Assembly (NCBI GenBank): GCA_000004985.1
Contig: GG739161.1
Source of the DNA: Naegleria gruberi
Lineage: Eukaryota
Reading direction: 5' to 3' (one strand)
DNA: 5,460 nt
Part shown: positions 1 through 5,460 of the stretch, one piece after another
How positions within the stretch are numbered: position 1 is the first letter of the stretch
Layout: each line of letters opens with the position of its first letter
Translations under genes and position numbers: made by a program
The notes under the pieces: generated by a model
Told to the model about the DNA's origin: nothing
What the model saw: the letters and a program-made list of their open reading frames with translations, nothing else
Database searches by the model: none

Positions 1-1320
1 ATTCGTGGTTATTTTGATAATTGTTCCTTGATTTCAAAACAATTCTTTAATGTGATCAAGGAGCGTTCAAAACTTTTTATTAAATTTAAAAAGAAATTTA
101 CAGAGAAAAGAATTAAATTATTCATGAAGAGTCAATTTATGAATAGTATTGTTAATGTTAAATTTTCTAAAAGGTTGTTTGACTCTATAGAAAAACCCAA
201 ATTCATATGTGAAATGAAACAATTAACATCACTTATTATTAGTGGAAATCAAATTGGTGATAAAGAAGCCAAATTTATAAGTGAAATGAAACAGTTAACA
301 TCACTTGATATTTATAACAATCGTATTGGTGATGAAGGTGTCAAGTCAATAAGTGAAATGAAACAATTAGTATCACTTAATATTTATAACAATCGAATTG
401 GTGATGAAGGAGTTAAATCAATAATAGAAATGAAACAATTAACATCACTTGATATTGGTGGAAATCGAATTGGTGATGAAGGAGTCAAATTTATAAGTGA
501 AATGAAACAATTAACATCACTTAATATTTCTGAAAATCAAATTGGTGATAAAGAAGCCACATTTATAAGTGAAATGAAACAATTAACGTCGCTTAATATT
601 TATAACAATCGAATTGGTGATGAAGGAGTCAAATCAATAATAGAAATGAAACAATTAAAATCACTTGATATTGGTAGAAATCAAATTAGTGTAGAAGGAG
701 CTAAATTTATAAGTGAAATGAAACAATTAGTATCACTTAATATTTATAACAATCGAATTGATGAAGGTGTCAAGTCAATAAGCGAAATGAAACAATTAAC
801 ATCACTTAATATTGCTGAAAATCGAATTGGTGATAAAGAAGCCAAATTTATAAGTGAAATGAAACAATTAACATCACTTGATATTTATAACAATCGTATT
901 GGTGATGAAGGTGCCATATTTATAAGCAAAATGAAACAGTTAACATCACTTAATATTTATAACAATCGAATTGGTGATGAAGGAGTCAAATCAATAATTG
1001 AAATGAAACGATTAACATCACTTGATATTGGTAGAAATCGAATTGGTGATGAAGGAGTCAAATTTATAAGTGAAATGAAACAATTAGCATCACTTGATAT
1101 TTCTGAAAATCGAATTGGTGATGAAGGTGTCAAGTCAATAAGCGAAATGAAACAGTTAACATCACTTAATATTTCTGAAAATCGAATTGGTGATGAAGGA
1201 GCCAAGTCAATAAGTGAAATGAAACGATTAAAATCACTTGATATTGGTGGAAATCAAATTGGTGATGAAGGAGTAAAATTCATAAGTGAAATGAAACAAT
1301 TAGCATCACTTAATAAGTAG
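1..1320 (+). CDS. RNI-like leucine-rich repeat protein, about 15.5 tandem 24-aa repeats. The frame is open to the left window edge, so the gene is probably 5'-partial. The first in-frame ATG is at 124, and the track start at 28 is a TTG.
   Basis: Seen in sequence: 430-codon ORF ending at TAG 1318-1320. The repeat unit is EMKQLTSL(D/N)I.xN(R/Q)IGDEG(V/A)K(S/F)IS, which matches the ribonuclease-inhibitor-type LRR pattern (L..L.L..N.IGD.G...L). Frame 1 runs without a stop from nt 1 to 28, so the coding region likely starts upstream of the window, or at ATG 124. Confidence 0.8.
   Translation: MRGYFDNCSLISKQFFNVIKERSKLFIKFKKKFTEKRIKLFMKSQFMNSIVNVKFSKRLFDSIEKPKFICEMKQLTSLIISGNQIGDKEAKFISEMKQLTSLDIYNNRIGDEGVKSISEMKQLVSLNIYNNRIGDEGVKSIIEMKQLTSLDIGGNRIGDEGVKFISEMKQLTSLNISENQIGDKEATFISEMKQLTSLNIYNNRIGDEGVKSIIEMKQLKSLDIGRNQISVEGAKFISEMKQLVSLNIYNNRIDEGVKSISEMKQLTSLNIAENRIGDKEAKFISEMKQLTSLDIYNNRIGDEGAIFISKMKQLTSLNIYNNRIGDEGVKSIIEMKRLTSLDIGRNRIGDEGVKFISEMKQLASLDISENRIGDEGVKSISEMKQLTSLNISENRIGDEGAKSISEMKRLKSLDIGGNQIGDEGVKFISEMKQLASLNK
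211..1317 (+). repeat. Tandem array of 72-bp coding repeats (about 15.5 units, each encoding one 24-aa LRR). Unit 7 is 69 bp after an in-frame 3-bp loss. Units 1-3 are near-duplicated as units 9-11 at a 573-bp offset.
   Basis: The motif 'gaaatgaaaca' recurs at 211, 283, 355, 427 and so on, which is a 72-bp period. Units 3 (427-498) and 11 (1000-1071) differ at about 3 of 72 positions. In the unit starting at 715, RIGDEG becomes RIDEG. Confidence 0.9.
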
Positions 1321-1717: not shown

Positions 1718-2680
1718 ATGTTTCAACTGAATACACACATTATTCCTTTTGCTTGCAGCCTAATTCCATTGACTGTTGGTATTTATTTTGCTAGAAAGTA
1801 TTTTAACGGGCCAACTGTCAGTGAAAAATTACTGAAATCATCAGATTTGACAGGTAAGATTGTTATTGTCACTGGAGCAAGTGCTGGTGGAATAGGATTT
1901 GAAACTAGCAAAGTATTGCACAGATTGGGAGCAACAGTTGTGTTGGCTGTCAGAAATCAACTGGCTGGTGACAAGGCTAAAGAATTAATCGAAAAGGAAA
2001 ATGGAAATTCTGACAAATTAATTGTAATGCTCATCGACTTAGCAGATTTAGCTTCTGTTAAGAAATTTACAGAACTTTTCATGTCAAAATTCAATCAGCT
2101 TGACATTTTAATTAACAATGCAGGAATCATGTCAATTTACGGAACTACCAAACAAGGAGTGGAACTTTTATTTGGAAGCAACCATTTGGGCCACTTTCTT
2201 CTCACACACTTACTTTTGAATTTGCTTAAAAAATCCAAAGATGGTCGAATTATTAATTTGACATCTGTCTCTGCAAATTCAAATTTGGAATTTATTGAAA
2301 AATACGCAAATTTTGAATTGGAGTCATTGATTGGAGATTGTAAGACATCACATCCCAATAATTTTGCACTTTACAGGAGATCCAAGTTGGCCAATATTTT
2401 ATTTAGCAAAAAATTAAGCAGAGAACTAGCTCTAGATTCTTCCAATTTAGTTCAATGTTATTCTAATCATCCAGGAACTGTAAAGTCAAATATGGGAAAG
2501 CACATGCCTCTATTATTCAGATTATGCACCAAAATCTTCCTCTTTCCAATACTTGCCTTAGTTTTGAAGAGTACTTATCAAGGAGCTCAAACAACAATTC
2601 ATTTGGCTCTTTCGAATAAGAAAGATTTGAAATCGGGTAACTATTATGCTGATTGTCAGGAAAAGGTTGGATCCATATGA
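1718..2680 (+). CDS. Classical short-chain dehydrogenase/reductase, retinol dehydrogenase 11/12/13/14-like, with an N-terminal membrane anchor. The annotated stop is probably premature, and the homologous C-terminus continues in the +1 frame to TAA at 2784-2786.
   Basis: Seen in sequence: ATG at 1718 in the context aaaaaaATG. N-terminal hydrophobic segment. Gly-rich NAD(P)-binding motif VIVTGASAGGIG. NNAG motif (ILINNAGIM). Catalytic Ser in LTSVSANS. YxxxK as YRRSK. C-terminal GAQTTIHLALS and SGNYYADC resemble the RDH11-14 subfamily. Frame 0 from 2682 encodes DSIELQDKLWKNSFELCKEY, which resembles the RDH C-terminal ..RLW..S.ELL motif. Confidence 0.85.
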   Translation: MFQLNTHIIPFACSLIPLTVGIYFARKYFNGPTVSEKLLKSSDLTGKIVIVTGASAGGIGFETSKVLHRLGATVVLAVRNQLAGDKAKELIEKENGNSDKLIVMLIDLADLASVKKFTELFMSKFNQLDILINNAGIMSIYGTTKQGVELLFGSNHLGHFLLTHLLLNLLKKSKDGRIINLTSVSANSNLEFIEKYANFELESLIGDCKTSHPNNFALYRRSKLANILFSKKLSRELALDSSNLVQCYSNHPGTVKSNMGKHMPLLFRLCTKIFLFPILALVLKSTYQGAQTTIHLALSNKKDLKSGNYYADCQEKVGSI

Positions 2681-2942: not shown

Positions 2943-3860
2943 ATGTCATTTGTCTCTGTTTCTAATCAAATATTTAAAAAAATGTGGACAACAAGACGTA
3001 GAACAATACTTTCCTTGATTTTACTGACAATATCTAGTTGTCTCGTGTATATATTTCTCTTCATTCTCTATCAACCAAATATTGATGAAAAATTAACTTT
3101 TCTTCATCCAATCATAATCCGAAACAAATATTCGAAAGCTAAAATTGCAATCGTTTCATTCCATACGAAAAGCTTTCAAGAAATTGGACGAATGACAAGT
3201 CTGAACAAGATTTTCTACTCTCTAAAGCATAATTATGATTTTATCCTATTCAATCAACCTTTCTATAAATCATGGTTTGTGAAACCTGCTTGGAATAAGA
3301 TTCCACTTATCAAAAGTCAATTGAGTAGTTATGATTGGATTATTTGGATTGATTCTGATGCACTTGTGTTATTGCATCAAGTTGATTTGGATCAAATTAT
3401 TGAGGAATCGTTGAAACGAGATCCGAATAAGAATGGAGAAATTAACCTAATCATTTCATATGATAGAAATGGATTGAATAGTGGAATAATGGCTATTAGA
3501 AATTGTAAATGGTCACATCAGATATTGAATAATGTACTCAGTTGGAAATACTTTCTCTATTCCATGCATTGGTATGCAGAACAAACTCCACTCGTTATGG
3601 AACTCGAACATGGAAAATCTCAGAATGTTCGAGTTGCCTTGAAATCATTCCTCAATTCGTACATGTATGATTATAAGGAGGGTAAATCATTTATATTTCA
3701 CTTGGCTGGATGTAATAAGTATGAGGGAAATTTGTGTGCCTCAATTATGAGAAACTTTTATGAAAATTGGAGGGAAAGGAATGTCACCACAGTGGAGGAT
3801 AGAGAATTATTGAGAAAGACTGAAATTATTTATGATGGAGTGAGTGGAGGTGGATCATAA
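2943..3860 (+). CDS. Type-II membrane glycosyltransferase, GT34-like (Mnn10/Mnn11/Gma12/xyloglucan-xylosyltransferase family; alpha-1,2-galactosyl or alpha-1,6-mannosyl transferase type).
   Basis: Seen in sequence: ATG at 2943. A short cytosolic N-terminus (KKMWTTRRR) is followed by one hydrophobic span (ILSLILLTISSCLVYIFLFILY). The segment KPAWNKIPLIKSQLSSYDWIIWIDSDALVL matches the GT34 signature W.K(I/L)P.......E..W(I/V)WW.D.DA, which includes the DxD motif. Stop TAA at 3858-3860. Confidence 0.7.
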   Translation: MSFVSVSNQIFKKMWTTRRRTILSLILLTISSCLVYIFLFILYQPNIDEKLTFLHPIIIRNKYSKAKIAIVSFHTKSFQEIGRMTSLNKIFYSLKHNYDFILFNQPFYKSWFVKPAWNKIPLIKSQLSSYDWIIWIDSDALVLLHQVDLDQIIEESLKRDPNKNGEINLIISYDRNGLNSGIMAIRNCKWSHQILNNVLSWKYFLYSMHWYAEQTPLVMELEHGKSQNVRVALKSFLNSYMYDYKEGKSFIFHLAGCNKYEGNLCASIMRNFYENWRERNVTTVEDRELLRKTEIIYDGVSGGGS

Positions 3861-4080: not shown

Positions 4081-4151
4081 TCGGGTGTGGTATAGTGGTA
4101 GCATTCCAGACTGTCACTCTGGCGACCCGGGTTCAATTCCCGGCACTCGAG
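4081..4151 (+). tRNA. tRNA-Asp (anticodon GTC), eukaryotic type, no encoded CCA.
   Basis: Hand-folded cloverleaf. The acceptor stem pairs tcgggtg (4081-4087) with cactcga (4144-4150), giving 7 bp with one G-U. The D-arm is gtat/agtggta/gcat. The anticodon stem pairs ccaga (4106-4110) with tctgg (4118-4122), and the loop is ctGTCac with the anticodon at 4113-4115. The T-arm is ccggg ttcaatt cccgg (4127-4143). The discriminator is g4151. The A-box is gtatagtggta and the B-box is ggttcaattcc. The overall sequence is close to metazoan and fungal tRNA-Asp. Confidence 0.9.
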
Positions 4152-4157
4152 ATTAAA

Positions 4158-4161
4158 TTTT
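4158..4161 (+). terminator. RNA polymerase III terminator (T4 run) 7 nt downstream of tRNA-Asp.
   Basis: TTTT at 4158-4161 lies immediately 3' of the tRNA. By established knowledge, runs of four or more T terminate Pol III. Confidence 0.5.
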
Positions 4162-4568
4162 AATATTTAATAGTTTCAAAATATCGATAAAAGCATATAG
4201 TCTACCTAATTCTCGATTTTCAAATGATCATCTCTTAAAACCATAAAGAAGATAACCTCAGATTATACTGACCTATTTTCTTCAAAAATCACAAGCAGAT
4301 GCTCAACTGAACTTGGAAAAGTTGAGCTCAAAAAACCAATGAATCTTGTGCTTTACCTTACATTTTCCTTAATTAATGCAGGACTGCATTTGATATTTGA
4401 TGGATTCAATTTATCCTCCATCTTGTTCATGTTTTGGGTCCCTCATCATGCTTACTATTATTTAATTTAATATCTTCGTCATCATACATGTTCGGAATTT
4501 AAAAAAAACTCAATTTTACTCTGATTGAGATTCTCTATGTGCAATGATTTTTCAATTAATAAAAAGAG

Positions 4569-4758
4569 TTGGGTGGCTCCTAATCTGACGGTTTGTGCAA
4601 TGTCTGATTGAAACCAAATCAAAGTGAGCAATTAAGCTCAAACCCTGATCCCTACAAAAAATTGAGTTAATAGTAATGCAACCCGTGGGCTGCTTTCAGC
4701 TATTAAACTGAAAAGAACAGATACTACACTCGATCAAAGCCAATTGGCCGAGAAAGAT
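4569..4758 (-). ncRNA. U2 spliceosomal snRNA gene. The 5' end is at 4758. The 3' end is approximate and lies near the ...GGAGCCACCC(AAC) terminus.
   Basis: The reverse complement of 4758 downward reads AUCUUUCUCGGCCAAUUGGCUUUGAUCGAGUGUAGUAUCUGUUCUUUUCAGUUUAAUAGCUGAAAGCAGCC...CAAUUUUUUGUAGGGAUCAGGGUUUGAGCUUAAUUGCUC...GGAGCCACCC. This contains the near-invariant U2 5' region and the branch-point-binding GUAGUA (human: AUCGCUUCUCGGCCUUUUGGCUAAGAUCAAGUGUAGUAUCUGUUCUUAUCAGUUUAAUAUCUGAUA). It contains the Sm site AAUUUUUUG. It contains a stem-loop III-like GAGCuuaauuGCUC. Its 3' terminus is similar to human ...GGUGCACCC. Confidence 0.85.
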
Positions 4759-4781
4759 GGTTTTGAGTATTACATAAGGAT

Positions 4782-4795
4782 CATTGTATTTATTC
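4782..4795 (-). promoter_or_regulatory. TATA-like element (GAATAAATACAATG on the minus strand), about 30 bp upstream of the U2 +1.
   Basis: TAAATA lies at about -34 to -29 relative to the inferred U2 start at 4758. By established knowledge, plant and many protist or fungal U-snRNA genes carry a TATA at about -30 plus an upstream element. No clear upstream element was recognised here. Confidence 0.3.
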
Positions 4796-4891
4796 GGTTT
4801 GTTGTCGAGTGAGGATTTGCAAAATGTTTGTGGTATTTTATTAAATAATAATGCCTAGTACAATTATTGAACATGTAGTGAATCTTAATTA

Positions 4892-5383
4892 CTAATTCTT
4901 TACTTTGATTTCATCCTTCCACCAAGCACCATCCATATCTTCCACTGTCTTGCTGTATTGATTGAATTTCCATCCATCCTGAGAGGTTTCTTCCTCTTTG
5001 AGGAATCCCCACATTTTAACTCGTTTCCAATGAAAGAATAAAGTCCAAACCTCACATTCGTCCACAATTTCCTCATTATTTTCATCCAATTCCTTAATTT
5101 CCTTATTCTCATTCGGTTGAGGTTTCAGCAAGACTCGGTGATAATCCTTCCCACTGAAATAATTAACACTTCCTGCACGAAACTCCTTCTCACTCATCTT
5201 TTTATTCGAATGCGAAACTTTAATTTCCCTATACGAACCACTTAATATCAAACTAATGCCAAACTTCCACGGATGATCGTGATACCCTCTATCAGGATCT
5301 GAATGCACAAATCGATGTAACACTAAACCAGGTCCATTTTCAAAAGATAATAAATTGATCTTTCCAAAATTAGAACGTTTGTT
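4892..5383 (-). CDS. Cupin-type thiol dioxygenase-like protein (cysteine dioxygenase / cysteamine dioxygenase / plant cysteine oxidase superfamily). This is the 3' exon only. There is no ATG, and the N-terminal 70-100 aa are expected in an upstream exon, possibly beyond the right window edge.
   Basis: Seen in sequence: the frame is open from 5383 down to TAA at 4892-4894. The track 'M' at 5323 is actually GTG. The translation ...KINLLSFENGPGLVLHRFVHSDPDRGYHDHPWKFGISLILSGSYREIKV...GSVNYFSGKDYHRVLL aligns with the CDO core ([36 protein letters not shown]...NDSIGLHRVEN). It also aligns with the ADO/PCO HDHPgM..SK.LyG motif. That gives a 3-His metal triad HxH ... H. The C-terminal 80 aa (acidic and Trp-rich) are not CDO-like. 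A candidate 3' splice acceptor, ttctaattttggaaAG|ATC, sits at about 5360. Confidence 0.45.
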   Translation of the reverse strand, partial: NKRSNFGKINLLSFENGPGLVLHRFVHSDPDRGYHDHPWKFGISLILSGSYREIKVSHSNKKMSEKEFRAGSVNYFSGKDYHRVLLKPQPNENKEIKELDENNEEIVDECEVWTLFFHWKRVKMWGFLKEEETSQDGWKFNQYSKTVEDMDGAWWKDEIKVKN

Positions 5384-5460
5384 TTATCGTTCAATGAGTG
5401 AAAGATTTGTTTCCTTGGCAAGTGTTTGGATAACGTATGGAGAAGTTGTTCATTTTTTTG

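Follow-up and report, generated by a model that had tools for sequence, protein, structure and literature searches.

What is encoded in the DNA between a tRNA gene (4081-4151) and the stop codon of the next protein gene (4892) on a small scaffold of the amoeboflagellate Naegleria gruberi, and does it work? The stretch analysed here, called the window, is the complete 5460-bp scaffold. It had been claimed at the outset that the interval from the tRNA to position 4892 has no protein ORF, and indeed none of 50 aa or more is found in it, the longest mechanical ORF being 49 aa in length. The original prediction was instead that positions 4569-4758 hold, on the minus strand, the gene for U2 small nuclear RNA, one of the core components of the intron-removing machinery. 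We find that 4568-4758 on the minus strand is a genuine full-length U2 snRNA gene, an ordinary housekeeping gene of N. gruberi. The best explanation is that it is a functional U2 gene of the N. gruberi major spliceosome, and presumably expressed, and we put the probability of this at about 0.9.

A U2 gene in this organism is probably not new. N. gruberi was one of the 149 genomes in the spliceosomal RNA screen of Lopez, Rosenblad and Samuelsson (2008; PMC2396436), who report major-spliceosome RNAs in nearly all species, the exceptions being C. merolae and G. lamblia. U1 is the only RNA that they name for N. gruberi among the models run with unfiltered Infernal, which implies that U2 had already been found in 2008. 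The N. gruberi U2 was thus probably already known, and is a textbook RNA gene of the kind that any routine Rfam/Infernal pass finds.

The gene has little significance beyond annotation hygiene, protein-only gene models leaving snRNA genes unmarked. It does confirm that the scaffold is eukaryotic nuclear DNA. This had been proposed from the U2 sequence, and it is borne out by the glycosyltransferase ORF at 2943-3860, which is 100% identical to a predicted protein of Naegleria gruberi. A fully canonical U2 of full size also fits the intron-containing genes of N. gruberi (the genes in the window itself appear to be intron-free), and contrasts with the shortened, polymerase III-made U2 of the trypanosomatid relatives.

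Identity and sequence elements of the U2 gene

The whole window was scanned using cmscan against all 4227 families of Rfam 15. Two matches were above the gathering score, these being U2 (RF00004) and tRNA. The U2 match, on the minus strand at 4568-4760, scores 119.5 bits (gathering score 46; E = 1.1e-24). It spans model positions 1-192 of 192, is not truncated, and is repeated when a sub-window is scanned. This is the significant match that the original prediction had proposed to look for, and it agrees with the predicted coordinates to within 1-2 nt.

The Rfam alignment reaches 4760, with two extra C residues (4760-4759) at model positions 1-2. We nevertheless put the 5' end of the RNA at A4758, on the basis of the usual AU start and of a purine as the first base; in the minus-strand reading of 4300-5000, it is AUCUUUCUCGGCCAAUUGGCUUUGAUCGAGUGUAGUAUCUGUUCUUUUCAGUUUAAUAGCUGAAA... 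that begins at 4758. The 3' end is placed with a few nucleotides of leeway, giving a gene of approximately 191 nt. The first 60 nt had been described as almost identical to human U2. This is a small overstatement: over the first 67 positions, 55 agree with the Rfam consensus, and the near-invariant core is about 40 nt long. Over the rest of the molecule the figure is 69/125.

From the 5' end, the first element is stem-loop I (4734-4753, minus strand), in which UCUCGGCC and GGCUUUGA enclose an AAUU loop, with six of its seven pairs canonical and one U.U. The predicted U6-pairing segment GCUUUGAUC is present at 4739-4732 (minus strand); the GCU..GAUC within this region, made up of the 3' strand of stem I and GAUC (4735-4732), can be assigned to helices Ib and Ia. 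There follows the conserved single-stranded sequence GUGUAGUAUCUGUUCUU at 4729-4713, which contains the branch-point recognition sequence GUAGUA (4722-4727, minus strand). GUAGUA sits between stem I and stem IIa, and is unpaired in the Rfam consensus structure. Just 5' of it, the Naegleria gene has GAUCGAG where the consensus reads GAUCAAG, a single change in an otherwise near-invariant 5' region.

Stem-loop IIa (4694-4713, minus strand) has all six of its pairs canonical and is recovered by free folding, and stem-loop IIb (4678-4693, minus strand) has all seven canonical, three of them being unlike the pair in the Rfam consensus. Downstream of these is the sequence CUAUUAA (4667-4673, minus strand), which is complementary to UUAAUAG in loop IIa (4706-4700). 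The consensus reads UUAAuAu and auaUUAa for these two segments: a U-to-G change in loop IIa is matched by an A-to-C change in 4667-4673, so that complementarity is kept by a double change. We take this to be the long-range pairing that alternates with stem IIa, as described in work on the yeast stem IIa/IIc toggle.

The Sm-protein binding site, AAUUUUUUG, was identified by its sequence in the Rfam alignment at 4663-4655 (minus strand). Both this motif and GUGUAGUAUCUGUUCUU had been quoted in the original prediction, and both are in place. Compared with the pattern purine-A-U(4-6)-G-purine, the base following the G is U and not a purine, and the sequence was still accepted as an Sm site. It is followed by stem-loop III (4618-4649, minus strand; 12 of 13 pairs canonical, with one pair deleted) and stem-loop IV (4575-4615, minus strand; 11 of 12 canonical, with one A.A), both of which are also found in the free fold. 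The 3' stem-loops that had been called plausible are therefore real features of the predicted structure, the 3' domain on its own having z = -3.9. Loop IV carries the motif AUUGCAC at 4601-4595 (minus strand); in other eukaryotes, the AUUGCAC loop is the site bound by U2A'/U2B''. Judged by its sequence, the gene has everything that characterises the U2 family.

The functions of these elements can be proposed from established knowledge of U2 in yeast, humans and plants, from which the roles given here are taken; every one of the elements is itself found in the sequence. GUAGUA, being single-stranded, would pair with the branch site of the intron, bulging the branch adenosine. The GCU..GAUC segment, together with the extreme 5' end, would pair with U6 (helices Ia, Ib and II) and so contribute to the catalytic centre. 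Stem IIa would alternate with the long-range pairing between its loop and the downstream segment in the course of the splicing cycle. The AAUUUUUUG site would nucleate the Sm ring, which would wrap it, and stem-loop IV would bind the U2A'/U2B'' pair.

The related U12 snRNA belongs to the same Rfam clan (CL00006), and shares with U2 its general layout and a role in branch-site recognition. U2 was the clan match retained, with one lower-scoring overlapping match of the same clan being dropped, and the branch-site-pairing sequence in Naegleria is GUAGUA, of the U2 type, and not the corresponding sequence known for U12.

Folding and conservation of base pairs

In the Rfam alignment, 42 of the 45 modelled pairs are canonical. 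Free energy minimisation, which is independent of the Rfam model, gives the 191-nt RNA a folding energy of -57.4 kcal/mol with z = -4.03, and none of 200 shuffled sequences is as stable. The free fold contains stems I, IIa, IIb, III and IV, which are the same five helices as in the model. The stem I/IIa/IIb/Sm/III/IV architecture, named originally as a feature on which the identification should stand or fall, is thus present both in the covariance-model alignment and in free energy minimisation. When folded in parts, the same helices are formed: the IIa/IIb segment alone has z = -3.1, as compared with the value given above for the domain containing III and IV. The branch-point segment folded alone stays unpaired, with an MFE of 0 kcal/mol. 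We also asked whether the A-to-G change could still pair, as G.U, in the branch-point-interacting stem-loop; the MFE of the 28-nt segment is 0 kcal/mol whichever base is used, so that folding does not distinguish the two.

A scan for bacterial promoters and terminators, which is irrelevant for a eukaryote, reported two "terminators" here; these are U2 stems IIb and III.

For comparison we used a real, high-scoring U2 gene (168 bits) on a metagenome contig, L005:5654-5848. This is a plant-type U2 with the same architecture, the same length (approximately 190 nt), and the same GUAGUA, Sm site and loop IV AUUGCA. Over the first 67 positions, 55 are identical in the two genes. The differences include GAUCGAG in Naegleria against GAUCAAG in the plant-type gene, the loop of stem I, which is AAUU in Naegleria and UUUU in the plant-type U2, and the U.U mismatch in the Naegleria stem I. 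The 3' 125 positions have diverged much further, with 64/125 identical, and it is here that paired changes are seen, 14 pairs having been kept by double changes. Among all 45 pairs, 21 show no change, 7 survive a change on one side only and 14 survive changes on both, and the other 3 are imperfect in one or other of the sequences; because both sequences were aligned to a single model, these counts lean towards the structure of that model. Such a pattern of paired changes would be expected if selection acts on the structure of the RNA.

The GAUCGAG variant was followed further by scanning sequence collections with GATCGAGTGTAGTATCTGTTCTT. The scan of metagenomes gave three loci, none of them a close relative, and the scan of viral contigs gave 0 loci. 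The first is a decayed U2 beside the plant-type U2; the second, a U2 with many mismatches, scores 84.6 bits, and the third is a U2-like transcript that stays below the threshold (34 bits). Since only one decayed and two divergent U2-like sequences were recovered, the variant appears from these sequences to be sporadic and not diagnostic of any clade. The first of them shares its contig with the reference gene: the intact plant-type U2 (5654-5848, 168 bits) is followed approximately 840 bp downstream by a decayed U2 fragment at L005:6690-6799, which scores 47 bits, has lost its stems, and carries GAUCGAG.

The scaffold and the question of a silent copy

The gene could still be a silent copy. 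On this reading it would be a U2 pseudogene, or an unused copy, on a decaying or poorly assembled duplicate, with the working copy elsewhere, on a 362-kb scaffold.

The two annotated proteins of the window, NAEGRDRAFT_76803 and 76804, have 99%-identical twins, NAEGRDRAFT_70602 and 70601, which have adjacent locus tags on a scaffold of 362,555 bp. These twins and their adjacent tags suggest that the window is probably an allelic haplotig or a very recent duplicate. If so, a second U2 copy is to be expected on the 362-kb scaffold, as part of a second tRNA-Asp/U2 pair between NAEGRDRAFT_70601 and 70602. The flanking genes are Naegleria gruberi genes, and the scaffold is therefore not a contamination.

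Closest to the U2 gene on its 3' side is a tRNA-Asp(GTC) gene (4081-4151, plus strand), found both by Rfam (tRNA, 57.1 bits) and by ARAGORN, which is convergent with U2 and 416 bp from its 3' end. Upstream of the tRNA is an intact ORF of 305 aa with a Glyco_transf_34 domain by Pfam (2943-3860, plus strand). The public model of this protein has 222 aa and starts at an internal methionine; the 303-aa orthologue in N. lovaniensis supports the longer form.

Before this is a short-chain dehydrogenase ORF, also identified by Pfam (1718-2680, plus strand), which stops early. Its expected C-terminus (DPYEDSIELQDKLWKNSFELCKEYLNE...) resumes in another frame and extends as far as about 2786, leaving no space for an intron, which indicates a single-base frameshift near 2660-2670 that is either a sequencing error or the mark of a decaying gene. 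Towards the left end of the scaffold there is a gene for an RNI-type leucine-rich-repeat protein (198-1315, plus strand; Pfam LRR_6, E 8e-74), consisting of a 72-bp (24-residue) tandem array of 15.6 copies with 82% identity, whose frame is open to the scaffold's left end.

On the other side of U2 is a gene with an HDHPW motif (4892-5460, minus strand), previously called a dioxygenase. The name has a source, in that UniRef names the N. lovaniensis orthologue "Cysteine dioxygenase"; the gene itself has no Pfam match, and the label is best treated as tentative. At the N-terminus, some 30-odd residues (NEQLLHTLSKHLPRKQIFHSLNDKTNVLILER) are read in another frame than the rest, with one base missing near 5365; the ATG near 5451 is likewise out of frame, and the public model covers a fragment of 101 aa. 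A protein gene on each side of the tRNA-U2 pair therefore carries a single-base frameshift, and these may be sequencing errors in a small scaffold or the early decay of a duplicate.

The position of U2 is not conserved within the genus: the orthologous loci of its two neighbours in N. lovaniensis and N. fowleri (L001, L002 and L006) contain no U2 and no tRNA, and lie on different contigs. The corresponding loci of two environmental relatives (L007 and L008) likewise have no U2 or tRNA.

A silent copy would account for the frameshifts in the short-chain dehydrogenase and HDHPW-motif genes and for the 99%-identical twins with adjacent tags on the larger scaffold, and it draws further support from the lack of synteny in N. 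lovaniensis and N. fowleri. The gene itself also has three pairs that are imperfect (a U.U in stem I, an A.A in stem IV and one deleted in stem III) and the GAUCGAG change. Against this, it is full length, its functional motifs are all intact, and all but three of its modelled pairs are canonical. A truly decayed U2 looks very different, as is seen in the fragment at L005:6690-6799 described above. The divergence of the twins, at about 1%, fits allelic haplotypes better than an old and decaying duplicate. Moreover, the gene models of the twins are truncated to the same extent (222 and 101 aa), which suggests that the frameshifts may be common to both copies, or may be sequencing errors. We therefore give only a small probability to a silent copy, and prefer a working U2 gene.

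Transcription of the gene and the downstream spacer

Naegleria and the trypanosomatids both belong to the supergroup Discoba, in which the trypanosomatid U2 genes (Leishmania major, Trypanosoma brucei) are the best studied. The trypanosomatid snRNAs are all made by RNA polymerase III, each from a divergent upstream tRNA or tRNA-like element (PMC4950102). In L. major, U2 is transcribed by polymerase III under the control of A and B boxes belonging to a tRNA-like element, upstream and divergent, and to tRNA-Ala, and the transcript ends 2 nt before a T6 tract (PMC4950102). The primer sequence published for L. major U2, AUAUCUUCUCGGCUAUUUAGC, corresponds to AUCUUUCUCGGCCAAUUGGC in Naegleria, the two RNAs being of the same family and having a similar 5' end; however, the L. 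major RNA is only 143 nt long (PMC4950102), whereas that of Naegleria is of full size, at about 191 nt, with a canonical U-rich Sm site. Both genes have a T tract directly after them, but the Naegleria gene does not have the upstream tRNA-like element of L. major U2. The Naegleria U2 is neither of the trypanosomatid type nor a U12.

The Naegleria gene is most likely transcribed by polymerase II, on its own, from a promoter that would lie in the 133-bp gap between the stop codon of the neighbouring gene (4892) and the start of U2. A candidate promoter element in this gap is the TATA-like sequence AATAAATA (4787-4794, minus strand), which would be at -36 to -29 relative to A4758. Polymerase II is favoured because the gene contains a T6 run (in the Sm site) and a T4 run, whereas the first T-run downstream of tRNA-Asp is only a TTTT (4158-4161), and because the trypanosomatid layout is missing.

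The case for polymerase III starts from a T5 run on the U2 strand (4561-4565), which begins 3 nt beyond the Rfam match. Its significance is uncertain; at the rate found in the intergenic parts of this window, the chance of a run of T5 or longer starting in a given 10-nt stretch is about 4%. If the run were a terminator, the tRNA-Asp gene, 416 bp away, would put both polymerase III genes in the same neighbourhood, and the L. major U2 that ends at a T tract would provide the precedent (PMC4950102). However, the tRNA-Asp is convergent with U2 and is found past its 3' end, whereas the trypanosomatid arrangement calls for a divergent element about 100 bp upstream. The upstream region 4759-4950 has no tRNA, tRNA-like sequence or B box: ARAGORN and Rfam found no tRNA upstream of U2, and box scans together with a permissive Rfam scan of 4100-5000 found no A-box/B-box promoter there, the only good B-box match being inside tRNA-Asp itself (4130-4140). 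A promoter of the trypanosomatid type was rejected on these scans. In addition, the internal T6 and T4 runs should stop polymerase III before it reached the end of the gene.

It is conceivable that the Naegleria U2 is made by polymerase III and ends at the T5 run, with tRNA-Asp as its companion, in which case the trypanosomatid habit of transcribing Sm-class snRNAs by polymerase III would go back to the ancestor shared by all Discoba and would be older than the tRNA-dependent promoter. The internal T6 run and the absence of an upstream tRNA-like element make this very unlikely. A genuine U2 gene transcribed by polymerase III in the manner of the trypanosomatids, with the T5 run as its terminator, is very improbable on the same evidence, and we retain polymerase II as the most likely polymerase.

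The 416-bp spacer between the 3' end of U2 and the tRNA was considered as a possible site of another structured RNA. It has no excess structure (z = -0.27), and the only matches are sub-threshold ones resembling C/D snoRNAs, with E of about 2, so that this candidate was rejected and the matches attributed to chance. They lie at 4224-4297 on the minus strand (snoU2_19, 21 bits; snoR117, 17 bits) and are probably fortuitous. The spacer also contains, at 4301-4327, an inverted repeat in which two perfectly matching 8-bp arms, GCUCAACU/AGUUGAGC, enclose a loop of 11 nt. On the U2 strand, approximately 40-67 nt past the 3' end of U2 (4495-4525), there is a small hairpin, CUCAAU...AUUGAG, which is followed by a run of U8.
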